Assembly: GCA_965221455.1 (NCBI GenBank)
Contig: OZ244890.1
Span: 415,623 to 479,622 of the forward strand
Length of the DNA stretch: 64,000 nucleotides
From: Gammaproteobacteria bacterium
GTDB lineage: Bacteria; Pseudomonadota; Gammaproteobacteria; Eutrophobiales; Eutrophobiaceae
Direction: 5' to 3'
Below are positions 1 to 47,345 of this stretch, in pieces (within the stretch, counting starts at the first letter, position 1; every line of letters begins with the position of its first letter). The notes beneath the pieces were generated by a model. That model worked only from the letters and a program-made list of their open reading frames with translations, was not told where the DNA came from and made no database searches. Position numbers and translations under genes: made by a program.

Positions 1-15
1 AATCAAGAAGCAGGC

Positions 16-1203
16 ATGCCGCCCAAAGATAAAATGACAGCAATTGAATTAAAGGCAAGCCTGGGCCTGGCGGGTGTCTTATTCCTCAGGATGTCTGGCT
101 TGTTCCTGATCTTGCCGGTATTCACGCTCTACGCCAGAACACTCACCGAATCAACGCCTACCCTGATTGGGCTTGCATTCGGCATCTACGGCCTGACTCA
201 GGCTTCCTTGCAGATCCCCTTTGGTATGATGTCAGACAGGCTGGGCCGGAAACCCGTCATTGTTACGGGCTTACTAATATTTGCAGCGGGGAGTCTGATC
301 GCCAGCCAGGCGGATTCTATCTGGGTAATGATTCTAGGGCGCATATTACAAGGTGCCGGGGCAATTTCATCTGCACTCATGGCCCTGGCTGCCGATCTCA
401 CTCGTGATGAACAAAGAACCAAGGCGATGGCCATGATTGGGGTCAGTGTCGGTTTTACATTTTCCCTTTCATTCGTCGCGGGTCCGGTATTGGATGCCAT
501 GATTGGTGTCTCCGGAATATTTATCCTCAGTACGATACTGGCGGTACTCGCCATCATCGTGCTGTATCTACTGGTGCCAACACCTGAAAGTTCCCACTTC
601 CATAATGATACTGAAGTCTCATCCGCAGTGCTGGGAAATGTTTTGAAGGATCGTAATTTACTCAAACTAAATCTGGGTATCTTCATACTCCATGCGATCT
701 TGATATCAAACTTTATCGCTGTTCCGCTGGCGTTACAGGATCTCGCTGGATTGGCATCTTCCCGACATTGGCAGGTGTATCTGCCCGTTTTACTTGCTTC
801 CGTCGTATTTATGATGCCCGCAATCATCATCGGGGAGCGCACACAAACGTCCGGATTTTATTTCAGAGCCGCCGTGTTGATACTTCTGTTGTCGCAAATA
901 GGTTACTTTTTTTGTCACAACACGCTAATGGGATTGGCTACCATGCTTTTGCTGTTTTTCACAGCCTTTAATTATCTGGAAGCGTCCCTGCCCTCATTGA
1001 TTTCAACAGTATCGTCTAAAAACAGCAAGGGTACAGCGTTAGGTGTTTATGCCTCATCTCAATTTTTAGGGATGTTTACGGGAGGACTAATTGGTGGCAT
1101 TATCCATGAGCATTTCGGACTTTCAGCGGTGTTCATTTTTGGCAGCGTCATGACGCTGGTATGGCTCCTGGCAAGTTTACTTCCAACGGGCCGGACTCAG
1201 TGA
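16..1203 (+). CDS. MFS-family transporter
   Basis: The 395-aa ORF is hydrophobic throughout with about 12 predicted TM segments. It carries the MFS-type motif GMMSDRLGRKP after TM2. Confidence 0.75.
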   Translation: MPPKDKMTAIELKASLGLAGVLFLRMSGLFLILPVFTLYARTLTESTPTLIGLAFGIYGLTQASLQIPFGMMSDRLGRKPVIVTGLLIFAAGSLIASQADSIWVMILGRILQGAGAISSALMALAADLTRDEQRTKAMAMIGVSVGFTFSLSFVAGPVLDAMIGVSGIFILSTILAVLAIIVLYLLVPTPESSHFHNDTEVSSAVLGNVLKDRNLLKLNLGIFILHAILISNFIAVPLALQDLAGLASSRHWQVYLPVLLASVVFMMPAIIIGERTQTSGFYFRAAVLILLLSQIGYFFCHNTLMGLATMLLLFFTAFNYLEASLPSLISTVSSKNSKGTALGVYASSQFLGMFTGGLIGGIIHEHFGLSAVFIFGSVMTLVWLLASLLPTGRTQ

Positions 1204-1279
1204 ATAATATACTGACTAATAAACAACTTCAGCATAAAGACCGTGATAAGTTGATGGGGAAAATCAGGGGGAATTCAAG

Positions 1280-1729
1280 ATGGCTAGAGGTGTAAATAAA
1301 GCAATTATTTTGGGATCATTAGGACAAGATCCCGACATCAGATACACTGCCAGTGGTGCCGCAGTGGCAAATATCAGTATCGCGACCAACGAACAGTGGA
1401 AAGATAAAGAATCTGGTGAAATGCAGGAACGCACTGAGTGGCATCGTGTTGTATTTTTCGGGCGTCTGGCTGAAATCGTCGGTGAATATTTGCGTAAAGG
1501 CTCTCAGGTTTATATTGAAGGGCGCATACAAACGCGTAAATGGCAGGACAAAGAGGGACAGGATCGATATACAACAGAAATTGTCGCCAATGAAATGCAG
1601 ATGCTTGGAAGTAAAAGTGGTGGAACGACTGCAAGTTTTGACAAGACACCCGAACAGCAACAATCGGCACCTGCCACTACCGGTGAAAAAACTGCAAACG
1701 ATGACTTCGACGATGATATCCCGTTTTGA
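1280..1729 (+). CDS. ssb: single-stranded DNA-binding protein
   Basis: The N-terminal OB-fold region ([23 protein letters not shown]...[35 protein letters not shown]) is followed by a Gly/Gln-rich linker and the acidic tail DDDIPF. A purine-rich RBS (agggggaa) sits upstream of the ATG. Confidence 0.92.
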
Positions 1730-1790
1730 AAGCGCGGGAATTCGTCTGACTTGACACGAAATTTATTTTTGACGATACAAACCCGCCGGA

Positions 1791-4349
1791 TCAGTCCGTT
1801 CTTCTGGTGCGTTTATAACGTTGATGTTTCGCCATCCGCTCTATACCAACATCTTCCTGTTTATCAGTTTTAATCAATGGCACTTTGATCTCCCTTGGTT
1901 TGCCTATGTGATAACCCTGGGCATAATCAACACCGAGTTTTTTTAAACATCCTAGAATTTCTTCATTTTCAACAAATTCGGCGATAGTCTTTTTGCCCAT
2001 CAAGTGACCAATCTCATTGATTGATTTAACCATGGCTAAATCAATCGGATCGTCCACCATATCTCTGACAAACATCCCGTCAATCTTCAAAAAATCCACA
2101 GGTAAATTCTTTAAATACCCAAATGAAGAGACACCACTGCCAAAATCATCAAGTGCAAAGGAACAACCTTTCTTTTTTACTATATCAATGAATCGCGTTG
2201 CATTTGATAAACGGGATATCGCCACAGTTTCAGTTATTTCAAAACATATATCGGATGCCGGAACATTTCCGACATCCAATTTTCTATCGATATGATTGAG
2301 GAATGCTTCATCGCTTAATGAATGTCCAGATAAATTAATCGCGCAAGATATCAAACTTTTGCACTTATCAGAGAGATTTTCCATCCATGCATAGGCTGAA
2401 TCAAATACCCAACGATCAAGTTTAACAGAAAGATCATAACGCTCAGCTGCCGGCAAAAAAGCACCCGGAGGAATAATTGCGCCGTCTTCATCAACCATTC
2501 TTATCAAACATTCATAACGTTCTTGCTCACTATTGTTATCCTTTAGTGAAATAATAGGTTGCAAGTATAAACGTAGTCGGGCTTCGTCCAATGCGCGATT
2601 AATTTTACTCACCCATTGCATTTCACCCTGGAGAACCGCCAGGTCAGTATCCTGCGTATGATATGTGTGAACTCTATTTCGCCCTGCCTCCTTTGCTGCA
2701 TAGCAGGCTGCGTCCGCAGCGCTTAATATCTCGGAAGAACTGCCAGCGCTGTTATTGATAGGAACTAAACCAATACTGATACTGATAGAAAAGCGTTTAT
2801 CAGTCCAGACAAAATGAAATCTTTCAACTAATTTTCTTACATCTTGAGCGAGGCCTTCCGCCTGAGATAAGGAACAATTCTCTATTAACATGCCGAATTC
2901 ATCACCACCGAGTCGAGCAAGAGTATCCTTTTTACGTAGTTTTAACTTAAATAACTCTCCCAATTGTCTAAGTAGTTCATCCCCTGCCAAATGTCCGCAG
3001 GTGTCGTTAATCACCTTGAATTGATCGAGATCCATGTAGCATAAAGCATGTTCCTCACCTCCCACCATGTCATTGGCAATCAAATTTTCAAGTCGGAGTT
3101 CAAATTCCTGTCTGTTGAAGAGATCTGTTAATCTATCATGCTTCGCCTGATAAGATAACTGTTGAGAAAGTTTGTGAGCATCGGTAATATCTTCAGAAAC
3201 AATCAATAAATTTTCATCACCATCAATATTATTGATGACTCGTGCGGATTCCCTACCCCATATAATAGAACCGACTTTTTTAACCTTGCGAATTTCCCAG
3301 TCGTGCACATTATCCTGGTCAAGGAAACATGACTCAATATTGGCTTGATAGTTATCTCTATCTTCCCCAAGGATTATGTCCATCACTGAGCATCCAACAA
3401 GATCATCAACATGATAACCCAACTTCTCTGCACCAAACTTATTGACTGAGGTCATTACATTATTTTTATCGATGGTGAAAAACATCGCTGGAGTATTGTC
3501 ATATAGTGCACGGAACCGATTTTCACTTTCTTGCAGTCTCAAATCAGCCAATTTCTGCTGCGTTATATCTCTAATAAATGCGCTGAATGAAATAATTTCA
3601 TCACAATGAGAGTAAACGGGAGTAATTGTTAATTCGACCATAAAAGTATGGCCTGCTCGATTTTGCGCGTCGATTTCGATTCTTTTATTTAAAATACTCG
3701 ACGACTTGCCGGTTTTGACCAATCTACCTATACCATTCCTGTGCCCAGCCCTTTTCCCTTCAGGCACAATAAACTTTTCCAATAATTTTCCTATCACTTC
3801 ACTTTCAGTCCAACCGAATAATTTTTCTGCCTGTTTATTCCATCTGATTATTTCCCCCCTGGTATTAATTGCAACAAATGCGTCAAGTGAATTTTCAAGA
3901 ACATTTCTATTTAATACTTCCTGACCAGCAAGTGCTTTTATTCTCTGAACCCTTTCGAATCCTGAACTTGCCAATACTGCAAATGTTTGCATAATCGCGA
4001 TTAGCTTTTTCTTATCGTCAAACGGGGAGGTGTCAAAAATTGAAATATGACCAAGAACGAGGTTTGATGATGAGACAATAGAGCAAACAAGGTGGTTTTC
4101 CACTCCCATTCTCCTAACTTCAACTTCAGGAAATAGTTCTTGTGTGACTTCTACAACATATTGACATGAGGTTTCATGAACACTGCATTCGGTGCTCCTG
4201 TGCTCAAGGAAATCACTATTCGCACAAAAAGCCACTATGTCAACATGACCAGTTGGATTTTCATCGTTGATTAGGCTGATAAAAACATATTGTGCTTTTG
4301 TGAGAAAAGCCAGGTTTGACACTAACTCCCTAAAAAAAGAATCATCCAT
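1791..4349 (-). CDS. GAF/PAS/GGDEF/EAL c-di-GMP signalling protein
   Basis: The 852-aa protein has an N-terminal GAF-like region and PAS repeats. It contains the GGDEF motif (RLGGDEFGML) and a C-terminal EAL-type domain (ECLIRM...). Confidence 0.8.
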   Translation of the reverse strand: MDDSFFRELVSNLAFLTKAQYVFISLINDENPTGHVDIVAFCANSDFLEHRSTECSVHETSCQYVVEVTQELFPEVEVRRMGVENHLVCSIVSSSNLVLGHISIFDTSPFDDKKKLIAIMQTFAVLASSGFERVQRIKALAGQEVLNRNVLENSLDAFVAINTRGEIIRWNKQAEKLFGWTESEVIGKLLEKFIVPEGKRAGHRNGIGRLVKTGKSSSILNKRIEIDAQNRAGHTFMVELTITPVYSHCDEIISFSAFIRDITQQKLADLRLQESENRFRALYDNTPAMFFTIDKNNVMTSVNKFGAEKLGYHVDDLVGCSVMDIILGEDRDNYQANIESCFLDQDNVHDWEIRKVKKVGSIIWGRESARVINNIDGDENLLIVSEDITDAHKLSQQLSYQAKHDRLTDLFNRQEFELRLENLIANDMVGGEEHALCYMDLDQFKVINDTCGHLAGDELLRQLGELFKLKLRKKDTLARLGGDEFGMLIENCSLSQAEGLAQDVRKLVERFHFVWTDKRFSISISIGLVPINNSAGSSSEILSAADAACYAAKEAGRNRVHTYHTQDTDLAVLQGEMQWVSKINRALDEARLRLYLQPIISLKDNNSEQERYECLIRMVDEDGAIIPPGAFLPAAERYDLSVKLDRWVFDSAYAWMENLSDKCKSLISCAINLSGHSLSDEAFLNHIDRKLDVGNVPASDICFEITETVAISRLSNATRFIDIVKKKGCSFALDDFGSGVSSFGYLKNLPVDFLKIDGMFVRDMVDDPIDLAMVKSINEIGHLMGKKTIAEFVENEEILGCLKKLGVDYAQGYHIGKPREIKVPLIKTDKQEDVGIERMAKHQRYKRTRRTD

Positions 4350-4437
4350 AATTAATCATCCACAAGAGAGCCTCTAATCTTATCTTCCGTTGTTTCGCAT
4401 TTTAATGGAATAAGCTACGTTATTAGGGCACCTGATT

Positions 4438-5420
4438 TTACCGCATCAATGAATTTACACATTTAGTGAATTGAGCTAAAAATTCCAGCTCTTTGTTAAA
4501 GACAAACATCATCACGAAGAGATTTGTGATAGCAACAATCAAGAATACCACCGGGATCATGATTTCCACTGAAATTAGCACTATCATTGAAACGATGGAA
4601 ACCACCATGAAAAAAGCGTTGATAATATTATTCGCAGCAATGACCCTGGAACGATGACAGGGATCACTTCCTTTTTGTACCAGTTTATACAAAGGCACCA
4701 TATATAATCCTCCTGATTAATGCGATCATACTAAAGTCAATCAGAATGCGCCAGTGATTGGAATGGTCAAGGAACATACCAATCGTTGGTGACATATTGC
4801 TCTCTGATAATTCAATCACAGGCAATAAAATAAATGCCATATCTGTTGCAAATAAAATGCAAACCAATCGCACCGACAGGTACAGTCCCGGAACCATGAT
4901 ATTCCAATAATCGCCCGGAAAACCGGTTCAGGCGCACCAGCCTCAGGTATTAAACGACTGGCGATCCAACCCGCTGTTGCAAATAAAACAATCGCAATTG
5001 CAACATGAAGACCGCCGTTTGGATCCGCCGAGATTAAAATACCACCTAAAATAGTTCCTAACAAAATAACTGTGTAAGTTCCCATCTGACAAATGCTGCG
5101 GAAGAATACTGTATTGCAGTGGTCCAAATAATGTTGATTGTGTTCCCATGGAAAACAAAACTTATGAGTAACAAGGGCAAACTCATTAAGTAAAAACCGG
5201 TAATTGCCAGACACATTAATGACAATTTCAGCTATTTTTGACTTGGCGTATTAAAATCGACTTTCAAATTTATCAGCAAGCTATCCTGCTGTTGCTGAAA
5301 AGAGAAAGACAGGCAGTATAAATACACCAACAGCGACAAGCACCAGAATGCTGCCACTGACACCCATTGTACTGGCCAGGGAAAACGCTATTAAAATGAC
5401 AATGGCCATTCTTAAAATAC
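4438..5420 (-). pseudogene. fragmented membrane transporter remnant (MFS-like), frameshifted
   Basis: Four or five short minus-strand ORFs in different frames are each highly hydrophobic and TM-like (for example GGILISADPNGGLHVAIAIVLFATAGWIASRLIP). Together they cover a gene-sized block, and no single frame stays open. Confidence 0.35.
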
Positions 5421-5605
5421 GTTGTCATTCAACACTCCCGGGAATCAGGTGCAGAATACAGGCAGAAACCGATTGTTTTTTAGTAATGCAAACTGGTTCA
5501 TGATCAGTATGCCAGGATATTGAATGTTTCATTTCTGCCTGAGTGGTCCGCTGAATTGGAAATCATACTGACACAAAATCTAGAGAGAGGGAAACAGAGA
5601 CAATC

Positions 5606-6762
5606 ATGGGCATTGTTACTGACATCAAGTTATTGAAAAACAGACGCACTAAAATTCTGGCCACACCGGGACCCGCCTCTAATTCGGCAAAAGTCATCAC
5701 ACGATTAATCGAAACCGGTGTCAATTTATTTCGCTTAAACATGTCCCATGGCGAACCTGTTATTGTCACCACACGCGAAGTTGCAGGAGAAACCGGACTG
5801 ATTCCTTCTCAATACAAAGCCCTGACAAACGATGTCAAAGCCGAAAATCGTATACTGCTTGACGATGGTAATCTTGAGCTTAAAGTGGAAAGCGTTGACG
5901 GCACTGAAATTACATGCACCGTTGTCTGTGGCGGAATTTTAAAAAATAATAAAGGCATTAACCTGATTGGTGTTAACGTCTCAGCACCTTCACTGACAGA
6001 CAAAGATCGTGAAGATGCACAATTTGCATTGGGACTGGGTGTGGATTTTCTGGCATTATCTTTTGTCAGGTGTGCAAAAGATATGGATGATCCAGGCAGG
6101 TTCCAGTTGCCCAAAGTCAATTAATCGACAGGGCCAGACGCAAATTCAAGCCTGCCATCGTGGCTACCCAAATGCTGGAATCCATGATCGAAAACGCCAG
6201 ACCGACTCGCGCTGAAGTCACAGATATCGCTTATGCAGCCACACTTGGTGCTGATGCGGTGATGTTATCTGCTGAATCAGCCACCGGTAGTTTCCCCGTT
6301 GAATCTGTAGAAATGATGGATAGTATTTTGCGACAAACTGAAGCAGTGCTCTGGCAAACCGGCGCTTATGGCACTGCATTAAATACCCCGGATAAGTTAC
6401 CCGTCCCGATATGGGAATCTACGGCGAATGCAAGCAATAGTCTGGCACGAGACTTGATGGCACATGCGCTTATCGTTATTTCTCAGGAAGGCACGTCTGC
6501 TGCAACCATAAGTTCTGCACGACCTGCGGCACCGGTAATTGCGATTTCAAATCAGGTAAATACTTGCAGAAAAATGGCACTAATGTGGAGTATTATCCCC
6601 GTACTGGTTGAAGAAAAAGACATGGGTGATCATAACAACCTGGCAAGAAAAATTGCCAGAGATCTGGAACTGGCAAGTGCAGGAGATACCGTTTTGATGG
6701 TAAAGGGCTTGCACAAAGAGCCGGAATTGAACCGCCCGTCAATCACAATTGTGACTGTTTAA
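5606..6762 (+). pseudogene. pyk: pyruvate kinase, eroded (frameshift plus internal deletions)
   Basis: ORF1 (5606-6124) matches the PK N-terminus (RRTKILATPGPAS...LFRLNMSHG) and B-domain (ILLDDGNLELKVESVDGTEITCTV). ORF2 (6160-6762, GTG start) matches the PK C-terminal half (ATQMLESMI..PTRAEVTD...DAVMLSAESA). The ORF2 frame in fact extends back to 6091 (SRQVPVAQSQLIDRARRKFKPAIVATQML, matching the VEIPVEEV..RARKVVITATQML region). About 50 aa after SHG and about 45 aa (including the ARGDLG region) are missing, and the frame changes at about 6088. Confidence 0.7.
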
Positions 6763-6805
6763 AGTTTACCTGTACTTAACTTACTGCACTATTCCCGGGA
6801 AATAT

Positions 6806-7294
6806 TTAGCGGTATTTATACACCGGCTCGGCGCCATCTGCTGCGGTCTGATATTTTACAGACAGTTCGGTAAATGCGTTCAAGGCATCTTCCAGATTTT
6901 TGTCTTCTCTTAACTGAAAAGCGTTAATGCCACTGCGCTGCATATAGAAAAGTTGATCACGTAAAACATCACCGACTGCGCGTAGTTCACCTTTAAAGTT
7001 GTATCTGTCACGTAACAGACGTGCGTTTGAGTAGGAACGTCCATCAACAAATGCGGGAAAATCCAGCGCAATTAAATCAAAGTGTTCAATATCCTTTGCA
7101 ACTTCATACATGTCATCGTCACCGTTAATACAGATCCCTAATTTTCCTTCTCTACTCATCAAAGTATCCTTATGTTCTAGCCAATAAGCGCAAGGGATAA
7201 TGACATCACCTGCGGGCAAACTCGCATCCGGCTCTATTTCTGACAGTCTTTTCCAACCATCTTCAACAATGACCTGATCTTTAATAATTTTCAT
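6806..7294 (-). CDS. DUF934-family protein (sulfite-reductase-associated)
   Basis: The 162-aa ORF lies immediately downstream of, and overlapping by 4 nt with, the cysI-like gene. This is the usual DUF934 position next to sulfite reductase in proteobacteria. Confidence 0.55.
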   Translation of the reverse strand: MKIIKDQVIVEDGWKRLSEIEPDASLPAGDVIIPCAYWLEHKDTLMSREGKLGICINGDDDMYEVAKDIEHFDLIALDFPAFVDGRSYSNARLLRDRYNFKGELRAVGDVLRDQLFYMQRSGINAFQLREDKNLEDALNAFTELSVKYQTAADGAEPVYKYR

Positions 7295-8997
7295 TTCTCT
7301 GCCCTCGCCCTCCAGGCACCAACGGCCGTCTTTCCTTGCGCATATTTTTCCGGATAAACTCTCCGCCTGTAAGATTCAATGCCAATCCGACGGTAAGTGT
7401 TGAGAAAAGATTCATCTTCGTAGCGATGCTCAATATAAACATCAAGCAGTTGAGCTATTGTCTCAGCAACTTTCTCTTTCTCAATCCCGGGACCCAAACG
7501 ATCACCTAATATTGCATCATTTTCGGCAGATCCACCCAAGGTCAATTGATAGAACTCAACACCTTTTTTCTCCACGCCCAATATACCAATATGACCAACA
7601 TGATGATGGCCACAAGCATTCATACAACCCGACATTTTGATCTTGATTTCACCAATATCATGCAAATAATCCATATCATGGAATTTTTCATTGATCTGTT
7701 TCGCGATTGGAATGGAACCTGCGTTGGCAAGCGAGCAAAAATCCAGTCCCGGACAACAAATCATATCCGTTAGCAAACCGATGTTGGGCGTTGCCAATCC
7801 ATGTTCAGACAGCGATTCCCATAAGGGAAACAAATCCGATTTCTTGACATGGGGCATAACAAAATTCTGCTCATGAGTAGTCACAATCTCACCGAAACTA
7901 TATTTATCAATTAAGTCGGCAAGATGTTCCATTTGTACATCTGTAACATCGCCTGGGGCAACGGTCGGGGCTTTTAGTGAAATGACAACTGCACGATAAC
8001 CATCTATCTTATGTGAAACAATATTTCGACCGACCCATGCGGCGAAGGCCGGATTAGTGGATTGATGTTTATCGAAACTGGTATCTGCATCCGCATCAAC
8101 TTCATAATTCGGTAGCATAAATTGTGCACTCACACGATCAATTTCTTTCTGATCCAGTAACAATGCAGAATCTTTAATGTAAGACCATTCTTCTTCAACC
8201 ATTTCAGTAAATTTTTCAATGCCTGTTGCATTCACAAGAATCTTGATTCTTGCCTTGTATTTATTATCTCGCCTGCCAAACCGGTTGTAGATGCGCAAAA
8301 TGGCTTCCATGTAAGAAAGCAAATGTTTCTTTTCAAGAAATTCCCGAATAACTTTGCCGATGACAGGCGTACGACCAAGTCCACCACCAACGAGCACCTT
8401 GAATCCAATATCGCCCTCTTTATTTCTTACCAGGTATAGGCCTATGTCATGTACCTGTACCGCTGCACGATCATGTTCTGCACCTGATACCGCAAATTTA
8501 AATTTACGTGGAAGATAGGCAAACTCGGGATGAAGCGTTGACCATTGGCGTAAAATTTCACAATAAGGCCTTGGATCTTCTATTTCATCTTCAGCAATCC
8601 CGGAAAACTGATCAGAAGTAATATTTCGAATGCAGTTACCACTGGATTGAATGGCATGCATTTGTACGCTGGCTAAATCCGCCAAAATATCAGGGACAGT
8701 CTCAAGTTTCGGCCAATTGTATTGTATATTCTGACGCGTACTAATATGACCATAATTCTTGTCGTACTTACGTGAGATATGTGCAAGCATGCGCAGTTGT
8801 CTGGAAGACAACAGACCGTACGGAATGTCTACACGCAACATTGGCGCATGCGTCTGAATATATAGACCGTTCATCAGTCGCAATGGCCTGAATTCGTCCC
8901 CTGATAGTTCTCCCGCAAGAAAACGCCGAGTTTGATCCCGAAATTGCTCTACACGCTCGTCGACTATCTTCTGGTCATAATTATCATACTGATACAT
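7291..8997 (-). CDS. cysI: sulfite reductase hemoprotein (nitrite/sulfite reductase family, siroheme/4Fe-4S)
   Basis: The 568-aa protein starts MYQYDNYDQKIVDERVEQFRDQTRRFLAGELSGDEFRPLRLMNGLYIQ, typical of the Pseudomonas-type CysI N-terminus. It also carries the Cys cluster CCPGLDFC...GCMNACGHHHVGHIGILG. Confidence 0.85.
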   Translation of the reverse strand: MYQYDNYDQKIVDERVEQFRDQTRRFLAGELSGDEFRPLRLMNGLYIQTHAPMLRVDIPYGLLSSRQLRMLAHISRKYDKNYGHISTRQNIQYNWPKLETVPDILADLASVQMHAIQSSGNCIRNITSDQFSGIAEDEIEDPRPYCEILRQWSTLHPEFAYLPRKFKFAVSGAEHDRAAVQVHDIGLYLVRNKEGDIGFKVLVGGGLGRTPVIGKVIREFLEKKHLLSYMEAILRIYNRFGRRDNKYKARIKILVNATGIEKFTEMVEEEWSYIKDSALLLDQKEIDRVSAQFMLPNYEVDADADTSFDKHQSTNPAFAAWVGRNIVSHKIDGYRAVVISLKAPTVAPGDVTDVQMEHLADLIDKYSFGEIVTTHEQNFVMPHVKKSDLFPLWESLSEHGLATPNIGLLTDMICCPGLDFCSLANAGSIPIAKQINEKFHDMDYLHDIGEIKIKMSGCMNACGHHHVGHIGILGVEKKGVEFYQLTLGGSAENDAILGDRLGPGIEKEKVAETIAQLLDVYIEHRYEDESFLNTYRRIGIESYRRRVYPEKYAQGKTAVGAWRARAEK

Positions 8998-9200
8998 CTG
9001 TTCCTGCCATAATTAGGTAGCTGATTGTATTAGGGAGCCATATTCTAACGGGGGGAGGATATAGCAACAAGTCTTTAATCCTAAAAGAAATTAACTCGAC
9101 CAAGCCTGGTCCAATTCACCATTACAACAGTCCTTGTGTTGTTTAGTGAATGTGACAAGCCCAAGATTTCTGCACCATTTTCAAAGTTAGGGTTTCTGGT

Positions 9201-10049
9201 TTAAGCAACTTTTTGTTGTCTGTTTTCTTGCTCCCAGCGTTCCCTGAATAGCTGTGGTGTTAAACCTTTCAGCGACCCATGGGGACGGTAGGTATTATAC
9301 GCTTCCACCCATTGATGAATTATCATGGTAGCTTCACGGAGCGACCGGAATTGCCATTTGTTCAGGCAATCATCCCTGAAGATACCGTTGTAACTTTCGT
9401 TATAGCCGTTCTGCCAGGGACTACCGGGTTCAATGAAATGCGCCCGCACACCTGATTCAGATAAGAGTCCCCGCACTACCCTGGCCAGAAATTCGCTGCC
9501 GTTGTCGCTGCGTATAAACTCCGGCTGACCATGCAAGGCAAATAACCGCCGTAATTCCTGTTTCACATCACCCGAGGTAAACGAACAACGTGGAGCAACG
9601 GCATACGATTCCCGGGTAAATTCATCCACCACGGTCAGGATTTTCACCCGCCTACCACATTCAGTCGCATCCATGACAAAATCATAAGCCCACACATGAC
9701 TGGGATACTTTGCCTGTAGTAACGGCGCATCTGTTCCCAAATACCGCTTTTTACGCTGCTTCCTGCGTACCTGCAGCCCTTCACGTTGACGGATTAACCG
9801 CACCCGCTCCCGACCAATCTGCGCCCCATCCAACTTCATCCGCTCATGAACCTTCCGATACCCCCAGCGAGCCTGATGCTCCGAGAGTTCAATGACTCGC
9901 TGCTCCTTGTCACACAGCGACCTTGACCGTTTCAGACTCCGCTTCGTGTTCCGGTTCAGTCTCAACACCTTACATACCCGACGTTCACTCACCCGGTAAG
10001 CTTCCCACAGATATTCAGTCGCATGAGCCTTGTCAGATGGGGCTACCAT
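9201..10049 (-). CDS. IS3-family transposase OrfB (DDE integrase core)
   Basis: The 282-aa ORF has the DDE region WAYDFVMDATECGRRVKILTVVDEFTRE...IRSDNGSEF...PWQNGYNESYNG. Confidence 0.85.
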   Translation of the reverse strand: MVAPSDKAHATEYLWEAYRVSERRVCKVLRLNRNTKRSLKRSRSLCDKEQRVIELSEHQARWGYRKVHERMKLDGAQIGRERVRLIRQREGLQVRRKQRKKRYLGTDAPLLQAKYPSHVWAYDFVMDATECGRRVKILTVVDEFTRESYAVAPRCSFTSGDVKQELRRLFALHGQPEFIRSDNGSEFLARVVRGLLSESGVRAHFIEPGSPWQNGYNESYNGIFRDDCLNKWQFRSLREATMIIHQWVEAYNTYRPHGSLKGLTPQLFRERWEQENRQQKVA

Positions 10050-10306
10050 TTTTTTGCATTCACATCCTGCAACATCCGGATATCAAGAGCCTGTTCTGCC
10101 ACCATCTTCTTCAACTCGCTGTTTTCCTTCTCCAAGCCCTTCAGACGTCTGGCTTGTGAGATATCCATCCCCCCATACTTGTTACGCCAGCGATAAAAAC
10201 TCTGCTCCGTAATATTGTGTTTGCGGCACACATCACGAGTATTCCTTGACTGCTCCGCTTCATGCAGAATCCGAATAATCTGTTCTTCAGTAAATCGTTT
10301 CTTCAT
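10043..10306 (-). CDS. IS3-family transposase OrfA (HTH)
   Basis: The 87-aa ORF (MKKRFTEEQIIRILHEAEQ...) has the HTH and leucine-zipper-like region typical of IS3 OrfA. It ends ...NAKKW, overlapping orfB. Confidence 0.8.
   Translation of the reverse strand: MKKRFTEEQIIRILHEAEQSRNTRDVCRKHNITEQSFYRWRNKYGGMDISQARRLKGLEKENSELKKMVAEQALDIRMLQDVNAKKW
10049..10055 (-). promoter_or_regulatory. programmed -1 ribosomal frameshift site (A AAA AAA) in the orfA/orfB overlap
   Basis: On the minus strand the sequence reads gcA AAA AAA tgg tag in the orfA frame. A -1 slip gives ...KKMVAPSDKAH, which is the orfB N-terminus. Confidence 0.55.
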
Positions 10307-10620
10307 TGGTTACTCCTTCGTGTTGGAGAAACCCTAACATAATCTCTGGTGCAATTATCGCAGGGCGATCCAAATGTGTCCGTCATGGTTGCTATTTAGC
10401 AAAAATTCGACTTTTATCCATGGGATAACCTTCGGTATCCGATGTCGCTAACAACAAATGTATGTAACAACCATTATGTGTTCTGTTCCAGCGCAATACA
10501 CCATGCGATCACCAAAAGACATTCCAGTAATTCAACTATCCGCCGCCTCGCAATCTCGAGACCCATATCATTTGCATGCTCCATCTATCGACTATATAAC
10601 ATATTAACTCTTGCACATAT

Positions 10621-11718
10621 TTATGAAATATGTCGTCTGGCAAGATAGTCGCGAGTATGCATCTGTTCAAGACGACTAATGGTTCTGAGAAATGGTTTGG
10701 ACAGGCGCTTCCCGATGTAAAGTTTTGACGGTCGCTCTTCTGCAGTCACAATTAATTTAACATGCCGATCATAAAATTCATCGACCAAGTTTATAAATCG
10801 TTTAGCCTTATCATTCGCCATTTCATCCATGACCGGGATCCCGGAAATAAGAACGGTTTGAAATGATCTGGCGATTTCCATGTAGTCCGCAGGGCCTCTT
10901 GGACCGTCACATACGGCATCAAAATCAAACCACACGACACCATCGGCAAGACGTACAGTTTCTATCGTCCGTCCTTCAATCTCAATAGGCATGCCTTGCG
11001 TTGTCTCACTCGGTGCAATGTGATCAAAATAAATTTCAAGCATTTCCATTGCTTCATCATCTGAGGGGGAATGGTAAATCTCCGCCTTATCCAGATAACT
11101 TAAACGGTAATCAACACCCGAATCCACATTCACGACTTCGGTATATTGCTTTATCAAGTCAATGACAGGTAGAAATCGTTCTCTTTGCAAACCATCCCGG
11201 TACAACTCATCCGGCGCCTCGTTGGAGGTTGCAACTAATACAACGCCTCTTTCAAACAATGCTTTAAGCAATCCACCCAGCAACATGGCATCTGTGACAT
11301 CAGAGACATGAAACTCATCAAAACACAAGACTGTAGTTTCCGAGGCGATGTTGTCCGCCACAACCTGTAACGGATCAGACACCTTTTTGAGCTCCCTTAG
11401 TCGCCTGTGCATCATCTGCATAAAACGATGAAAATGTATACGTTGCTTTTCTTTAAATGGCAGGCTTTCATAAAAAGAATCAATCAGGTAAGTCTTGCCG
11501 CGACCGACGCCTCCCCAAAAATATAATCCCCTGGTAAAGTTTGTCTTGTCTTTTTGAAATTTTTGTCTTATTTTTTCAAAAAAACCGTCACCATCAGTTC
11601 GTTCAGCCAATAGCTTGTCGAAAAGGCGTTGTGTCCATTGCACCGCAGTCTCCTGAGCTGCATCTGCATGAAAATCTTCGCGTAATAAATCTGCCTGGTA
11701 TTTTTGTAGAGGTGTCAT
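10621..11718 (-). CDS. zapE: ZapE/AFG1-family ATPase
   Basis: The 365-aa ORF has the Walker A motif GLYFWGGVGRGKTYLIDSF and AFG1-like architecture. Confidence 0.8.
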   Translation of the reverse strand: MTPLQKYQADLLREDFHADAAQETAVQWTQRLFDKLLAERTDGDGFFEKIRQKFQKDKTNFTRGLYFWGGVGRGKTYLIDSFYESLPFKEKQRIHFHRFMQMMHRRLRELKKVSDPLQVVADNIASETTVLCFDEFHVSDVTDAMLLGGLLKALFERGVVLVATSNEAPDELYRDGLQRERFLPVIDLIKQYTEVVNVDSGVDYRLSYLDKAEIYHSPSDDEAMEMLEIYFDHIAPSETTQGMPIEIEGRTIETVRLADGVVWFDFDAVCDGPRGPADYMEIARSFQTVLISGIPVMDEMANDKAKRFINLVDEFYDRHVKLIVTAEERPSKLYIGKRLSKPFLRTISRLEQMHTRDYLARRHIS

Positions 11719-11827
11719 CGTTAACCGGTGTTATTATCAGCGTCTGTTGATTGTGGATAAGCCTTTATCATGTAGCAATAAAGTACAACCGAAAACAACA
11801 GAGCACAAGCCGGGAACGACATACATT

Positions 11828-12514
11828 ATGATATTTGCCATCGCGACAATACTGCTGGTATCGCTTATTTTCGGACCACAGATGTGGGCTAAACATGTGT
11901 TTAAAAAGTATGCGATGGAAATTGATGCGCTTCCGGGGACCGGTGGTGAACTTGCTGAACATTTAATCACCCGACTCAAACTTAAAGACGTACACGTTGA
12001 AGAGGGTGAACAAAACGAAAACTATTACGATCCCGAAAATAAGCTGGTAAAACTCTCATCAGGGAATTTCAATGGAAAATCACTGACGGCAATCACTGTC
12101 GCCGCTCATGAAATCGGTCATGCCATTCAAGATCAAATCGGCTACCAACCGCTATCTTTACGCTCTCGATTAGCCAGGCTGTCATGGTTTTTTGAAAAGA
12201 TTGGTGCTGTCTTATTAGTTGCATTTCCCTTCATTTCATTAATCACACATGTTCCTGCCGCAGGCATCCTGACATTCCTTTGTGGTATCACCATCCTGAT
12301 TTTTCCAGTCGTTGTAAACCTGATTACATTACCGGTAGAGTGGGATGCAAGCTTCAGGCGTGCACTCCCAATATTGGTCGCGGGAGAATATATTACGGAA
12401 GCAAACATCCCTATCGCCAAACAAATACTCACAGCCGCCGCACTCACTTATCTTGCCGCATCGCTTTCCAGTATTCTTAATTTTTATCGATGGTTGATTT
12501 TCCTGAGACGATAA
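11828..12514 (+). CDS. membrane Zn-metallopeptidase (Zn_peptidase_2-like, HExxH)
   Basis: The protein has an N-terminal TM segment followed by AAHEIGHAIQ. The ORF finder extended the frame to a TTG at 11747; the ATG at 11828 (MIFAIATILL) is the more likely start. Confidence 0.6.
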   Translation: MIFAIATILLVSLIFGPQMWAKHVFKKYAMEIDALPGTGGELAEHLITRLKLKDVHVEEGEQNENYYDPENKLVKLSSGNFNGKSLTAITVAAHEIGHAIQDQIGYQPLSLRSRLARLSWFFEKIGAVLLVAFPFISLITHVPAAGILTFLCGITILIFPVVVNLITLPVEWDASFRRALPILVAGEYITEANIPIAKQILTAAALTYLAASLSSILNFYRWLIFLRR

Positions 12515-13542
12515 TCACAAATAACTATAAAAACAGATATCCTGAATAATCATTGACATGTTTTTGGCGATAGGCCCGACTTGACCCATTATTAACAATG
12601 ACTGCCACGCAGGCGTAATCACAGACTGAATATCATCCTGTATATTCCGAGGCACATCAAGATTACCACTGGCAGGTGCAGAGAACTTGCCATCGTATCA
12701 GCTAATTATTGGACGTTACTTTCCGATAATGCGAGCTTGTACTCGTATTAAATAACTTGAAAAAATTCTATGGAGTAAAACTGTTTAATTTTTTGACGCT
12801 CTGAAGATACTCTATCAAGCTGCTTAGCTGTTCCAGTGCCATGCCACCACCATGGAGTGGCATAAGATGAGCAGGCATGACATCAAAAACCATCAATCGT
12901 CCACTGTTTCACCATCGTTATTCAAGAATGATTCCTGATATTGCTTACCCTGGAATTCACTTCCTTATATCAAGAGTACACACATGATCCGCCACTATGA
13001 CAACATCAGAACATTGAATTAAATACCGAGACAAGCCTTACGCACATGTTCATTATTCATAAATGATCCCTGGCTTCTCCATCCAAAACGATTGTTCTTG
13101 TTTCCAAAGTATAACCATACCACGCCAATTGCAATGCCAACTCTGCATTTTTTCAACCAGAATAATCCAAAATATTTCAACAAGCACGCATGCAATTTCC
13201 TATATGATAAAAGGTGCCGGCACCGTAGCACTAAACCAATCCTCGAATGTTCAATTCTATCTATAAAGTATAAATACACGTAAAGCGACAACGCTCAAAG
13301 CGAGATGGTAATAAGGTATGGGATCAAGAAAATCAATACTACCTATTAGTTGGTGGTTCCACTCTACTCAAACCGCCTGTGCCACCAAACGGTTTAATAA
13401 ATTCAATCCAAGTCAAAAGTAAGGATTATAATATTTTCGTTTTACTTTAAAATATCATGTTCCTGCATAATAAATATTTATTTACCGTGAGCAATTATTA
13501 AAAAACTGTTTTGGAAAATTCAGAATTAATTATCAATAAAAA

Positions 13543-13575
13543 AACGGCCCCTCAAGGCCGTCTTTATTTTAAAGA
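13543..13575. terminator. bidirectional rho-independent terminator
   Basis: The hairpin acggcc-cctcaa-ggccgt is flanked by an A-tract (5') and a T-tract (3'). It sits 15 nt downstream of the stop of the minus-strand OM gene. Confidence 0.6.
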
Positions 13576-13589
13576 TATGCCGGCACCAA

Positions 13590-19233: not shown

Positions 19234-19875
19234 CTATATTGCTTCTTCCACTTGATAACCATACTCTGCAGCAGCATGTGTGATCACTTCAAAAAAACTC
19301 TGCCCAAAGGAACGTGCAACATAAACATCAAGGCTATCTTCATTTAAACAATGTATCAGAACATTTGTATGAAATAGACTCGTGACCTTTGCTTCGTCCA
19401 CCTTGAAATGAGAAACATCCATATCAAGCATTGTGCCTTTACGCAGTACGTTGCGCACGTCTTTACCGGAAATACGAATAACACAACGACTATGACTTTG
19501 ATCAGTGATTGCTGCCTGCTCCTCATGTACCGCATTCCTGATAAGCATGTCCAATTCACGATTTTCTTTTTCAACAATCAACCAACGTTCGGGACCCATC
19601 CAGATTGCAGTAGTTTCACCGAATTGAATCGCACTACATGCGGTTCGTGAGGGTTTAACACCCGCTGCCTGCTCAATCGCAATTGCAACTGCATCAGCCT
19701 GCTCTTCCCATGCGGCTACCTGAATAATGGATAAGGCACGGCGCTCGTTAAATATAACGCCCGGATCATTATTCTTAATTTCACCGAAGTTACCGGTTTG
19801 GTAGATTTCGTGTAATGCCGCACGGCGTGTTGGTGTTGCTTCAGCCACGAAGTCTTTCTCCCTCTGGATCGACAA
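19234..19875 (-). CDS. sarcosine oxidase gamma-like subunit (SoxG/MgdD-like)
   Basis: The 213-aa ORF is the last gene of the four-gene soxBDAG-type block and overlaps the alpha subunit gene. Confidence 0.6.
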   Translation of the reverse strand: MSIQREKDFVAEATPTRRAALHEIYQTGNFGEIKNNDPGVIFNERRALSIIQVAAWEEQADAVAIAIEQAAGVKPSRTACSAIQFGETTAIWMGPERWLIVEKENRELDMLIRNAVHEEQAAITDQSHSRCVIRISGKDVRNVLRKGTMLDMDVSHFKVDEAKVTSLFHTNVLIHCLNEDSLDVYVARSFGQSFFEVITHAAAEYGYQVEEAI

Positions 19876-22837
19876 ATACCGGATTTACCACTTTCATCGG
19901 TACCGTCCGGTTTCTTAACGGATAACTCATGTAAACGGTTTTGTTTTCCCAGGCCTCGAGTCCACCCTTAATAAAACCCAAAGCAATCGGATGATCCTTT
20001 TCCACACAATATCCGGTTGACGTGACATGACCTATCATTTCAACAGGTGGTGCTGCATGAGCATTGGTCACGATCTGTGAACCAGCTGTTAAATATGTTC
20101 TACCATCCAGTGGCACAAAACCTGCAATTTTTTCTCGATCAACTGATGTTAAAGCTTCACGATAGGCAAGACGTTTGCCAATAAACTCTTTCTTCTTCGA
20201 CATCATCATACCCAGACCCAGATCGTCCGCAATCGTACGCCCATCCAGCTCTGGGCCTGCAACATGACCCTTTTCCATGCGCATATTACCGAGTGTTTCC
20301 GTTCCGTAGGGCACGATATTGTATTCCTGACCTGTTGCGTAAATCTTTTCCCAGACATAACGTCCGTAATCGCAGGGCACATTAACTTCAAAAGCCAACT
20401 CACCTGAAAAAGAGATACGAAATAAACGGCACCTGGAAATTCCGGCAACAACACATTCAGAAGCACCCATAAATGGAAATACTGCGTTAGACATATCAAT
20501 GTCTATAAGCTCTTGTAATACCTTGCGCGAATCAGGACCGGCAACGGCTATCGCTGACCACTGCTCGGTAACACTTGTAACCTGAACACGCAGATCCGGC
20601 CAGATAGCCTGTAGGTAAAACTCAAGGTTGGACATTACCTTGACGGCATTAGCCGTTGTTGTTGTCATGACAAAGTGATTTTCAGCCAGGCGCGATGTTG
20701 TACCATCGTCATATACAATACCATCTTCACGTAACATCGCGCCGTAACGTGCTTTTCCAACGGCCAGTTTTTTCCAGTGATTAATATAAACGCGTTCCAA
20801 AAATTCCGCAGTGTCCGCACCCTGAAGATCAATCTTGCCCAGGGTGGTTACATCGCACATACCGACTGAACTACGTGTCATCCCTGTTTCACGAAGAAAT
20901 GCATCACGAATAGTTTCACCTGTTTTCGGGTAATAACGCGGACGTCGCCAAATACCGGCATCTATCCATACACATCCCTGTTCTCCATGCCAGGAATCTA
21001 TAGCTGTACGACGGATCGGCATAAAATGTTCACCAACTTCCGCCCCGCCAAGCGCACCCAAAGATACTGGTGTATAGGGAGGACGAAAAGTCGTCAATCC
21101 GGCCTGAGGTATTGAACAACTGCGGGCAGCCGCCATGATTCCAAGCCCGGACAAATTAGATGTTTTACCCTGATCTGTTCCCATGCCCAAGGTGGTATAA
21201 CGTTTGAGATGTTCAACTGAAACATAGCCTTCACGATGAGCGAGCCGCACATCACTGGCGGCGACATCATCTTGATGATCGACAAATTTCTTCGGTCGGC
21301 CAGACACAGGATCCGGTGCTTCCCACAAAGGTTGATAAGCCGTTTCATGCAAGTCATCCGTCACAGGAAGCGCCATGGCATCGGTGGGGAAACCGGCGCT
21401 TGTTGCCGCTTCCACACCGGCAAATGATCCGTCCGCAAAACAGGTCTTGAGGTCAAAACTGCCCCGAGCGGCACCGACAGATCGTTCGGCCTGCCTTGAA
21501 TCACCCGAAACAAAAATATGACGTTCTTCATTCCAGACCACTTTGCCCCCTGACTGACTAAACAGATGCAAGGCGGGTGCCCAACCATTCGACATGGCTA
21601 CCAAATCACAATTTATACGTCGTGATTTTTTACTTGACAGGGATTGCACATCCACCGCGTGGACACCGTCAGCATTACCATGTGTATCAACAATTGCATG
21701 GCCTTGCAGTATTTCCATGTTACGACTACGACATTCTTGCGCATAACAAGATTCAGTCAGACGTGAATCGATAACTGCTTCTATTTTTGCACCCGCGTCA
21801 CTTAAATCGATGGCAGTTCGATAGGCATCATCACATGATGTAAAAACAACCGCATGTTTACCCGGCAATACGCCGTATTCATTAATGTAGGCCCTCACTG
21901 CATTTGCCAACATAACATTAGGTCGATCATTATTACCAAATACCATGGGTTGTTCATGTGCACCCGTGGCAAGTACGACCTGATCTGCCTGAATATTCCA
22001 TATACGCTGTCGTGGTTTATGCTCTGTTGGTATGGGAAGATGATCACAGACGCGCTCGACACAAGCTATAAAATTATGATCGTAGTAGCCAAATGCAGTA
22101 GTACGATCAAGCATAAAAACATTTTCCATTGCTTCCAGTCCAGCAACGATTTCCTTGATCCAGTCTACTGCAGGACGACCATCAATTGCATATCGTTCAA
22201 AACGTAATTGACCACCTAAATTTGCACGTTCGTCGATTAGCATCACGCGTGCGCCACTGGCCGCAGCAGATTTTGCTGCCATTAGGCCCGCAGGACCACC
22301 ACCAATGACTAACACCTCGCAATGACGACTCATACAGTCATACGTATCTGGATCGGGAAGTATTGATGCTGTTCCCATACCCGCTGCCTTGCGGATAAAT
22401 GCTTCAAAGATCATCCATATTCTGGTACTACGGAATGATCCCATGAATGTTTTGTAGTAAAAACCGGCAGGGAGAAAACTCTTGAATAAATCATTAATGC
22501 ATTGTGGATCACTACGCAAGCTACCACCGCGGTTTTGACTTTCCGCGACCAAACCATCATAAAGTTCGACGACTGTAGCGCGTGTATTCGGTTCCCGACG
22601 CGCACCTTCACGCAGATGTACCATTGCATTTGGCTCTTCCGAACCCGCAGAAAAAACACCGCGTGGACGATGATACTTAAAACTACGTGCAACCAGCTTA
22701 ACTCCATTCGCTAATAAAGCTGAGGCTAATGTATCGCCCTGATAGCCCGTATAGTTTTTTCCATCGAAACTGAATGATATCGATTTCGTGCGATCAATAG
22801 ATCCACCTTGTGCCAATCTATTAACTTGCATCGTCAT
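19841..22837 (-). CDS. sarcosine oxidase alpha-like subunit (SoxA/MgdC-like)
   Basis: The 998-aa ORF has an N-terminal FAD/NAD Rossmann motif (VLVIGGGPAGLMAAKSAAASG) and a C-terminal aminomethyltransferase (GcvT-like) folate-binding domain. The size is typical of SoxA. Confidence 0.8.
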   Translation of the reverse strand: MTMQVNRLAQGGSIDRTKSISFSFDGKNYTGYQGDTLASALLANGVKLVARSFKYHRPRGVFSAGSEEPNAMVHLREGARREPNTRATVVELYDGLVAESQNRGGSLRSDPQCINDLFKSFLPAGFYYKTFMGSFRSTRIWMIFEAFIRKAAGMGTASILPDPDTYDCMSRHCEVLVIGGGPAGLMAAKSAAASGARVMLIDERANLGGQLRFERYAIDGRPAVDWIKEIVAGLEAMENVFMLDRTTAFGYYDHNFIACVERVCDHLPIPTEHKPRQRIWNIQADQVVLATGAHEQPMVFGNNDRPNVMLANAVRAYINEYGVLPGKHAVVFTSCDDAYRTAIDLSDAGAKIEAVIDSRLTESCYAQECRSRNMEILQGHAIVDTHGNADGVHAVDVQSLSSKKSRRINCDLVAMSNGWAPALHLFSQSGGKVVWNEERHIFVSGDSRQAERSVGAARGSFDLKTCFADGSFAGVEAATSAGFPTDAMALPVTDDLHETAYQPLWEAPDPVSGRPKKFVDHQDDVAASDVRLAHREGYVSVEHLKRYTTLGMGTDQGKTSNLSGLGIMAAARSCSIPQAGLTTFRPPYTPVSLGALGGAEVGEHFMPIRRTAIDSWHGEQGCVWIDAGIWRRPRYYPKTGETIRDAFLRETGMTRSSVGMCDVTTLGKIDLQGADTAEFLERVYINHWKKLAVGKARYGAMLREDGIVYDDGTTSRLAENHFVMTTTTANAVKVMSNLEFYLQAIWPDLRVQVTSVTEQWSAIAVAGPDSRKVLQELIDIDMSNAVFPFMGASECVVAGISRCRLFRISFSGELAFEVNVPCDYGRYVWEKIYATGQEYNIVPYGTETLGNMRMEKGHVAGPELDGRTIADDLGLGMMMSKKKEFIGKRLAYREALTSVDREKIAGFVPLDGRTYLTAGSQIVTNAHAAPPVEMIGHVTSTGYCVEKDHPIALGFIKGGLEAWENKTVYMSYPLRNRTVPMKVVNPVFVDPEGERLRG

Positions 22838-23115
22838 GCCTGTTCTCCTCCGAGTGACTTATCAGCCGGAGCCGTCGCCAACACTTCATGCGTTAGCGTG
22901 TCGCGTTTAACTTTCAACCATTGCCGACAGCCGTTAACATGATGCCAATATTCAAGGTGTGGTCCACAGGAATTATTGCGCAGATAAACATAATCGTAAT
23001 ACTGTGCTGCACTTGTATCTGCAGAGAGATCAGGATGTTTATTTATGGCATCGCCGCCATAGCTAAATTCCTCCATATTGCGCTCACCACACCAGGGACA
23101 ATTAATTCGAATCAT
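22834..23115 (-). CDS. sarcosine oxidase delta-like subunit (SoxD/MgdB-like)
   Basis: The 93-aa protein begins MIRINCPWCGERNMEEF (SoxD-type Zn-ribbon-like N-terminus). It overlaps the alpha subunit start by 4 nt. Confidence 0.8.
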   Translation of the reverse strand: MIRINCPWCGERNMEEFSYGGDAINKHPDLSADTSAAQYYDYVYLRNNSCGPHLEYWHHVNGCRQWLKVKRDTLTHEVLATAPADKSLGGEQA

Positions 23116-23127
23116 TATGCAATTCCT

Positions 23128-24387
23128 CTAGTGTGCCCCGGGAACGGGACCCATGCCCTTTTCATCAATGGTGTAACCGTGTTCAAAGCGGGTCAGCGTA
23201 AAATTTTCATTTAGTTTATGCGGCTGATTATTTGCTATAGTATGGGCGAAACACCAGCCTGCAGCCGGAGTCGCCTTAAAGCCGCCGTAACACCAGCCAC
23301 CATTAAGATAAAGGCCTTTAATCGGTGTTGTACTAATGATCGGACTACCGTCCATAGACATATCCATGATACCGGCCCAGTGCCGTAATAGTCGAATACG
23401 TCCTATTGTCGGCATTAAAGCCATGCCCGCTTGCGATACATGATTCACCATAGGAAAATTACCGCGCTGTGCATAAGAATTATAGCCATCCAGATCACCA
23501 CCAAATACGAGACCACCTTTGTCTGATTGGCTAACATAAAAATGTCCAGCACCGAATGTACAAACTGTATCAATAAAAGGTTTTAAAGGCTCTGATACCA
23601 TGGCCTGCAAGCTATGACTTTCGATAGGCAAACGATTTAAGCCTGCCATTGCACATAATCGAGAGGTATTTCCGGCAACAGCAATGCCTACTTTCCCTGC
23701 CTTGATTGCTCCGCGAGAAGTTTGCAATCCTTCAACTTGTCCATTCTGTATATCAAAACCGGTTACTTCACAATTTTGAATTATATCGATACCCAAACTA
23801 TCTGCCGCACGAGCGTAGCCCCAGGCAACCGCATCATGTCGTGCCGTTCCGGCACGTGGCTGTCGCAAGCCACCATAAACCGGAAAGCGAGCTCTATCTG
23901 AGTAATCCAGCATTTGCAAGTGTTCTTTAACTTGATCACGAGTCAATAACTCGGCATCAATGCCATTCAAACGCATGGCATTACCACGGCGAGCAAAACT
24001 GTCCATCTGTGCATCGGAATGAGCAACATTAATGATGCCGCGCTGGGAAAACATGACGTTGTAATTTAATTCTTGCGCCAATTCTTCCCATAGCTTCATG
24101 GCATATTCATAAAAATGCGCATTATCCTCCAGCATATAATTGGAACGAATGATGGTCGTATTTCGACCGACATTGCCACTGCCTAACCAGCCTTTTTCGC
24201 AGACTGCAATATTAGTCATGCCGTGTAGCCTGGCAAGGTAATACGCTGCTGCCAAACCATGTCCACCGCCGCCAATAATGATAGCGTCATATTCCCGTTT
24301 CGGTTCCGGGTCGCGCCAGGCACGCTGCCAGTGCTTTTGCCCGGTTAGCCCTCCCCTGATAACTTCCAAAACTGAATATCGATTCAT
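23128..24387 (-). CDS. sarcosine oxidase beta-like subunit (SoxB/MgdA-like), FAD-dependent
   Basis: The FAD motif AIIIGGGGHGLAAAYYLA is present. The start is placed at 24387 (MNRYSVL), which is preceded by a strong RBS aaaggag; the ORF finder extended the frame to 24426. Confidence 0.8.
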   Translation of the reverse strand: MNRYSVLEVIRGGLTGQKHWQRAWRDPEPKREYDAIIIGGGGHGLAAAYYLARLHGMTNIAVCEKGWLGSGNVGRNTTIIRSNYMLEDNAHFYEYAMKLWEELAQELNYNVMFSQRGIINVAHSDAQMDSFARRGNAMRLNGIDAELLTRDQVKEHLQMLDYSDRARFPVYGGLRQPRAGTARHDAVAWGYARAADSLGIDIIQNCEVTGFDIQNGQVEGLQTSRGAIKAGKVGIAVAGNTSRLCAMAGLNRLPIESHSLQAMVSEPLKPFIDTVCTFGAGHFYVSQSDKGGLVFGGDLDGYNSYAQRGNFPMVNHVSQAGMALMPTIGRIRLLRHWAGIMDMSMDGSPIISTTPIKGLYLNGGWCYGGFKATPAAGWCFAHTIANNQPHKLNENFTLTRFEHGYTIDEKGMGPVPGAH

Positions 24388-27337: not shown

Positions 27338-27362
27338 TTTTTGATCCTCTATTCTCTTTCTG

Positions 27363-29134: not shown

Positions 29135-29241
29135 AAGCTTTTCCTCAATAAAAAATTAAAAACATTGCTGTATCAGCAAACAGCTACAACGTCCAAACGT
29201 CAGATACCCACCCGAAAAAAATATCGGATGAGCAATTTAAC

Positions 29242-38652: not shown

Positions 38653-38734
38653 TGCTTTGCCCCCTTCTCTATAATATTACCTTCTGCTGATTTATTAATA
38701 GCTGATGTGATAGTCCAATTAACAGATAAATCTG

Positions 38735-40090: not shown

Positions 40091-40128
40091 TTTCTTTCCT
40101 CGCCTGACCTCTATCATGACACCTGATT

Positions 40129-41101: not shown

Positions 41102-41107
41102 AAATCA

Positions 41108-45995: not shown

Positions 45996-46009
45996 CTTAA
46001 TAAAATGAC

Positions 46010-46892: not shown

Positions 46893-47345
<453 letters not shown>

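Follow-up and report, generated by a model that had tools for sequence, protein, structure and literature searches.

A pyruvate kinase pseudogene with two 49-codon deletions in a locally decaying region of a gammaproteobacterial genome

The pyruvate kinase gene (pyk) at positions 5606-6762 of the window (the whole 64-kb stretch of DNA analyzed here) was a unitary (orthologous) pseudogene of an ordinary kind that is unsurprising to specialists. It was very probable that we observed a genuine, recent and lineage-specific inactivation, in which a frameshift and two losses of about 147 nt, one or both of which were mediated by slippage, disabled the gene in a lineage under weakened purifying selection.

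No single uninterrupted ORF of about 470-490 codons was present at this locus, which carried two ORFs in different frames (see the table). The first of them, ORF1, matched the Pfam family PF00224 at profile positions 104-205 (E=7.9e-36), and the second, ORF2, matched the same family at positions 280-328 (E=6.2e-19) as well as positions 1-103 of the 114 positions of PF02887, the C-terminal alpha/beta domain (E=7.4e-21). Additionally, pyruvate kinases from the PDB matched ORF1 at about 1e-33. Judged by these scores, both ORFs matched pyruvate kinase far above the chance level, and the proposal of the earlier note that the two together represented this enzyme was borne out. According to the alignment with the solved structure, residues 12-50 of ORF1 corresponded to residues 5-43 of the Mycobacterium tuberculosis enzyme, and residues 46-161 to residues 88-203, which implied an internal gap of about 45 residues. 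The barrel domain of PF00224, which has 328 positions, was incomplete in the window copy and was represented only by positions 104-205 and 280-328 and a weak N-terminal piece, while the PF02887 domain was complete. The NCBIfam equivalog model for pyruvate kinase, TIGR01064, has a cut-off of 306.4 bits. ORF1 scored 143 and ORF2 161.5 bits, each about half of this cut-off, in comparison to 525 bits for the intact orthologue P0001.

Features of the pyk locus and its decayed surroundings (window coordinates)
Feature	Coordinates	Strand	Description
MFS_3-family transporter pseudogene	4438..5501	-	438 aa and intact in relatives
Intergenic region between the divergent MFS_3 and pyk remnants	5502..5605	.	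DNA alignment with L001, L004 and L005
ORF1, pyruvate kinase	5606-6124	+	172 aa
pyk segment 1 (codons 1-50)	5606..5755	+	N-terminal barrel strands; RLNMSHG substrate/K+-site motif kept
Deletion 1 junction	5755..5756	+	exactly 147 nt (49 codons) lost, in frame
pyk segment 2	5756..6094	+	remaining lid (B) domain; following helix and strand of the barrel, to FVRCAKDMDDP
Deletion 2 junction	6094..6097	+	148 nt lost between 6094 and 6095
pyk segment 3, other frame	6097..6762	+	QVPVAQSQLID...ATQMLESM, barrel end, whole C-terminal alpha/beta domain, original stop
Premature TAA	6122..6124	+	ends ORF1 in the shifted frame, 28 nt downstream of deletion 2
ORF2, pyruvate kinase	6160-6762	+	200 aa; frame differs from that of ORF1
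IS3-family element	9171..10353	-	orfA 10043-10306 and orfB 9201-10049, frameshift-type arrangement
orf68 remnant (conserved 68-aa ORF)	10354..10620	-	1-nt deletion; 5' part and upstream region gone

The joined translation of the locus was searched against 5.8 billion proteins. All of the best 33 matches were 483-484 aa long, and the nearest of them, P0001 and P0002, were 85% identical to the joined translation over the aligned columns. The relatives from which the matches came were uncultured Gammaproteobacteria with chromosomes of 1.7-2.4 Mb. Moreover, the window and four independent contigs from relatives had a common gene order, namely MFS_1, ssb, PAS/GGDEF/EAL, MFS_3, pyk, DUF934, sulfite/nitrite reductase, orf68, AFG1 ATPase and Zn-peptidase. 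By similarity and position, the plus-strand locus at 5606-6762 was orthologous to a pyruvate kinase of 483 aa, which was intact in every relative found. The earlier note had thought it unlikely that close relatives naturally lacked the segments missing here, and its expectation was right: the close orthologues all had 483 aa and contained DLCGPKIR, IAKIEKPEA and MVARGDLGVE. No orthologue with either deletion was seen among the matches listed from the protein databases, from 185,579 species-representative genomes and from the JGI metagenomes. Exact-sequence look-ups of the DUF934, SSB, pyk ORF1 and AFG1 proteins likewise led to no genome with the locus of the window and to no strain with its deletions. 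One protein of 389 aa (P0035) was considered as a similarly shortened relative and rejected, since it was cut by the end of its contig and its region corresponding to deletion 2 was intact. A unitary pseudogene is recognized by intact syntenic homologues in relatives together with disabling lesions such as a frameshift, a premature stop or the disappearance of essential residues, and the pyk locus showed both.

In a protein alignment with seven intact homologues of 483-484 aa, the window copy had two gaps of exactly 49 columns each, and the residues missing from it were 50-98 and 212-260 in the numbering of the intact protein. The exact sizes of the lesions were obtained from a DNA alignment of the window with three orthologous loci (L001, L004 and L005). 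In the same alignment, the leader of pyk, a Shine-Dalgarno-like GGGAAAC and the ATG start codon still matched the relatives. The earlier note had described a loss of about 50 residues after the SHG motif, which corresponded to the 49 residues of deletion 1. The lost stretch ran from EHASHENTY through ILADLCGPKIRTGRFK to LVNG and included DLCGPKIR. In the intact relatives, this block was flanked by the 7-nt direct repeat ATGGTGA (CCCATGGTGAA...GTCAATGGTGAT), which argued for replication slippage or a microhomology-mediated event as the origin of the deletion.

The second deletion was best read as a loss of 49 codons (LKAIV...IIAKIEKPEAL...MVARGDLGVELK; LKAIV...GVELK) plus one nucleotide of the next GAG codon, and it removed both IIAKIEKPEAL and MVARGDLGVE. 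At the DNA level, the ancestral GAT followed by CCTGAGCAAGTT was turned into GATCCAGGCAGGTT. Since deletion 2 took one extra base, the reading frame was shifted at 6094-6096, and the premature TAA that ended ORF1 was a consequence of this shift. The frame of ORF2 was open back to about 6091, where it read SRQVPVAQSQLIDRARRKFKPAIVATQML. Thus, the missing segment with ARGDLG, which had been put at about 45 residues, amounted to 49 residues and 1 nt, and the frameshift previously located near 6088 could be placed a few bases further on; all three figures of the earlier note were very nearly correct. The sequence at the junction, CCAGGCAGG, was not homopolymeric, and a search for flanking microhomology around deletion 2 gave nothing convincing. 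With 49 codons each, the deletions of 147 and 148 nt were nearly equal, a coincidence for which no mechanism was apparent; more speculatively, a common non-random deletion mechanism might have been behind both of them.

The intact orthologue P0001 aligned along its whole length with solved pyruvate kinases and had the motifs DLCGPKIR, IIAKIEKPEA and MVARGDLGVE. The first of these fell inside deletion 1, and IAKIEKPEA and MVARGDLGVE fell inside deletion 2. In pyruvate kinases, the I-A-K-I-E sequence is the PROSITE active-site signature, where the Lys is catalytic and the Glu is a ligand of Mg2+; the Asp of A-R-G-D-L-G is another Mg2+ ligand, and D-x-x-G-P-x-I-R is a part of the monovalent-cation/phosphate site. 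Structurally, deletion 1 took the second barrel helix and the third strand (with DLCGPKIR), together with the beginning of the lid domain. Deletion 2 took the part of the barrel from alpha4 to beta6, which is home to the catalytic Lys and to the Mg-ligand Glu and Asp. Since no more than five of the eight barrel strands were left and the polypeptide was split, no pyruvate kinase could be made from this locus. The analysis supported the view that the window pyk is probably a genuine non-functional pseudogene.

With respect to the bacterial PykA-like pyruvate kinases (TIGR01064/NF004491; PF00224 and PF02887), the remnant was orthologous, had an equal genomic position and was 85% identical over the retained residues. 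Similar to the intact enzymes, it kept RLNMSHG, the lid domain, the ATQMLESM...MLSAESA strands and the complete C-terminal domain. In contrast to them, it had lost the catalytic motifs, its frame was broken, and both of its pieces stayed under the family cut-off, as befits a relic.

It was possible, at somewhat below an even chance, that the loss of this gene had no metabolic effect, since another pyruvate kinase isozyme was encoded elsewhere in the genome, in which case the inactivation would be a pruning of redundancy and not a rewiring of the pathway. Many Gammaproteobacteria have two isozymes (PykF and PykA in Escherichia coli), and the dead copy was of the PykA type: NF004491 reached 536 bits and passed its cut-off, whereas for PykF the equivalog model remained below its own. 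If a PykF-type isozyme was present elsewhere, the loss of pyk would be neutral. The visible part of the genome was also limited to 64 kb. On the other hand, neither a second pyk nor genes for PPDK, PEP synthase or a PTS were found within the window, which covered about 3% of the genome, and the relatives with their 1.7-2.4-Mb chromosomes each gave one pyk match among the best 120 matches, a comparison that barely covered distant paralogues and was weak in that respect. A KDPG aldolase would be a reasonable source of pyruvate in a methylotroph of the RuMP/ED type on general grounds and rested on no gene of the window. The literature on pyk loss in methylotrophic symbionts served as context only.

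The immediate surroundings of pyk were also decaying. The earlier note had referred to other pseudogenes in the window, and two such remnants, MFS_3 and orf68, were identified. The MFS_3 remnant was spread over three frames, and base substitutions had given it in-frame stops. It had also gained 2 nt at one site, carried four or more indels of 1 nt and lacked stretches of 35, 72 and 161 nt. Its DNA identity to L004 was 78%, in comparison to 85% for pyk, and its decay was clearly older than the pyk lesion. Thus, the syntenic block of 12.5 kb had lost three (MFS_3, pyk and orf68) of its ten ancestral genes to inactivation. The IS3-family element was located between the sulfite reductase and AFG1 genes, at a site where the relatives had only the 68-codon ORF and no IS. 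It had 27-nt imperfect terminal inverted repeats and looked complete; a target-site duplication was not obvious at 9171-10353. A transposase identical to that of this element was present on other public contigs (L041).

Further signs of mobile elements were seen at a distance from the block. A truncated transposase at 46899-47348 (+) consisted of the C-terminal half of an rve integrase core and was 25% identical to orfB of the IS3 element, so it was a second, degraded IS of another type. Two direct repeats of 205 nt, 96% identical to each other, were found near it at 45690-45894 and 46009-46213. Moreover, two regions of about 1.1 kb each, 12515-13589 and 24427-25577, had no notable ORF and contained 16-24 stops per frame. 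Pfam scans recovered nothing in all six frames of 24427-25577 or in the minus-strand frames of 12515-13589, and tRNA and Rfam scans found no RNA genes in the window. These regions might have been genes that decayed completely, or they might be intergenic stretches of unusual length. Two other genes were tried as candidate pseudogenes and rejected: the genes at 29242-30711 (glutamine-synthetase-like) and 30825-32168 (DAO-like) were full-length and showed no sign of being broken, and they were divergent paralogues that shared 29% and 22% identity, respectively, with their counterparts in the window. The former was also under the cut-off for type III glutamine synthetase.

There were no stops in the 384 retained codons of pyk. 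According to the Nei-Gojobori method, the remnant had a dN/dS of 0.15-0.18 relative to L001 or L004, a mild rise over the 0.11 between these two intact relatives. At sites where the outgroups agreed, the window lineage had 15 private amino acid changes in pyk and the sister lineage about 3, a 5-fold difference. The intact neighbours had a similar excess, namely 2.5-fold in MFS_1, 3.3-fold in SSB, 2.2-fold in sulfite reductase, 3.5-fold in AFG1 and 7.3-fold in Zn-peptidase, and DUF934 had 5 private changes in the window lineage and none in the sister lineage. Calculated per conserved site, there were 0.061 private replacements in pyk and 0.039-0.070 in the intact neighbours. Since these neighbours shared the excess, we read the acceleration as a trait of the lineage and not of pyk. 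A pyk-specific acceleration had been considered as a proof of neutrality, and it was dropped because the excess in the intact neighbours was equal. Across the syntenic block (1-12514), every intact gene had 2-7 times more private changes at conserved sites than its counterpart in the sister lineage (L001/L004), which suggested that selection was relaxed throughout the genome of the source organism or that its protein clock ran faster.

Because the remnant contained no further stops and had diverged no more than its intact neighbours, the inactivation of pyk was likely to be recent, and in our reading the gene probably lost constraint only a short time ago. For the same reasons, the claim of the earlier note that this was an eroded pseudogene could be kept in part: the gene was a pseudogene with lost catalytic motifs, and the word eroded was overstated and suited the adjacent MFS_3 gene better.

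A remnant that was still under some constraint would likewise be expected to show a low dN/dS and no additional stops. It was very improbable, nevertheless, that the locus still gave rise to a shortened but functional product, in one or two polypeptides, that had acquired a non-catalytic (for example, regulatory) role. Such a role would agree with the lengths of both deletions, which were multiples of three if the extra nucleotide was counted apart, as well as with the conserved start codon and leader and the complete C-terminal domain. However, the frame was split, and the 5' end of ORF2 was without an ATG or an obvious ribosome-binding site, its first candidate start being the GTG at 6160. 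Three of the eight barrel strands were lost, and the replacement excess that was shared by intact neighbours meant that recency could explain the low divergence. Additionally, the remnant had substitutions at four positions that are near-invariant in pyruvate kinases (P121I, V184A, V212A and F369L), where the median homologue had none, although such changes were not unique to it, and its architecture was shared by no relative among the matches listed.

Even less credible was a sequencing or assembly artefact hiding an intact pyk, since, although a 1-nt frameshift alone would be a typical long-read consensus error, the frameshift site was not a homopolymer, two clean losses of 147-148 nt in a unique and non-repetitive gene corresponded to no known error mode (a repeat search found none), the protein with its frame restored would still be 98 residues short and devoid of the catalytic Lys, Glu and Asp, the flanking genes aligned base for base with no such gaps, and the stops in the adjacent MFS_3 were substitutional and not indel errors.

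We therefore returned to a recent, genuine inactivation, for which the following course of events can be proposed. An in-frame deletion of 147 nt arose between direct repeats, probably by slippage or microhomology, and the loss of 148 nt removed the catalytic residues, shifted the frame and split the polypeptide. The inactivation would occupy a small and recent fraction of the branch that separates the window lineage from its nearest sampled relatives. The loss may have been tolerated under weakened purifying selection, under which two neighbouring genes may also have been killed and IS elements may have settled. The cell would then have to obtain its pyruvate through some other enzyme or pathway with genes outside the window, unless a second pyk isozyme supplied it. 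Clear flanking microhomology was found at deletion 1 only, and this counted against the proposed scheme, as did the nearly equal lengths of the two deletions.

The conclusion of the earlier note that the genome was undergoing decay held at least locally, with three of ten block genes dead, an IS3 element inserted and replacement accelerated across the lineage. Textbook examples of lineages under relaxed selection, where pseudogenes accompany IS expansion, are the recently host-restricted or bottlenecked Sodalis, Mycobacterium leprae and Yersinia pestis. Similar to them, the window had a cluster of gene deaths (three of ten), mixed lesions (stops, small indels and losses of tens to hundreds of nt), an IS insertion together with an IS fragment, and a lineage-wide excess of replacements. 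Unlike in them, the remainder of the 64 kb was mostly intact, with about 87% in ORFs. The source genome can thus be put forward as a candidate for decay at an early stage.

Other parts of the window gave some information about the metabolism of the organism. On the minus strand, 19234-24426, 25991-30711 and 37345-42022 encoded a sarcosine-oxidase-like four-subunit dehydrogenase (of the soxBDAG type) and two sets of glutamate-synthase-like subunits. Each of these sets (GATase/GXGXG/Glu_synthase) was located beside a glutamine-synthetase-like gene. Such an arrangement is expected for methylamine use through the N-methylglutamate pathway, and it was apparently duplicated. FolD, an ammonium transporter and a PUFA-synthase-like megasynthase were also encoded in the window, and together with the two N-methylglutamate-pathway-like clusters they pointed to a user of methylated amines. 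The region 47511-60788 (-) contained an ORF of 1250 aa with almost no family match and with internal 150-nt repeats, located beside a PfaA-like polyketide/PUFA synthase of 2221 aa (KS-AT-3xACP-KR-DH) and a PfaD-like enoyl reductase. These three genes were predicted to belong to a gene cluster for a polyunsaturated fatty acid synthase.

These observations have direct consequences for annotation, where ORF1 and ORF2 should be merged as one pyk pseudogene and not listed as two short pyruvate kinases, and for metabolic reconstructions, which should assume no flux from PEP to pyruvate through the locus at 5606-6762. The finding of three gene deaths and one IS insertion within 12.5 kb, together with the lineage-wide excess of protein changes, would be unsurprising alone but merits a pseudogene census of the whole genome. 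A bolder idea, which we considered rather unlikely, is that the inactivation of pyk was not passive. It would then be a part of a recent and ongoing shift of an uncultured gammaproteobacterium that uses methylated amines to a restricted, possibly host-associated, lifestyle, where the step from PEP to pyruvate became dispensable or was even selected against and pyruvate was supplied by KDPG aldolase or by the environment. If this were true, the window would be a snapshot of early genome decay in which a rewiring of central metabolism was caught nearly as it happened.
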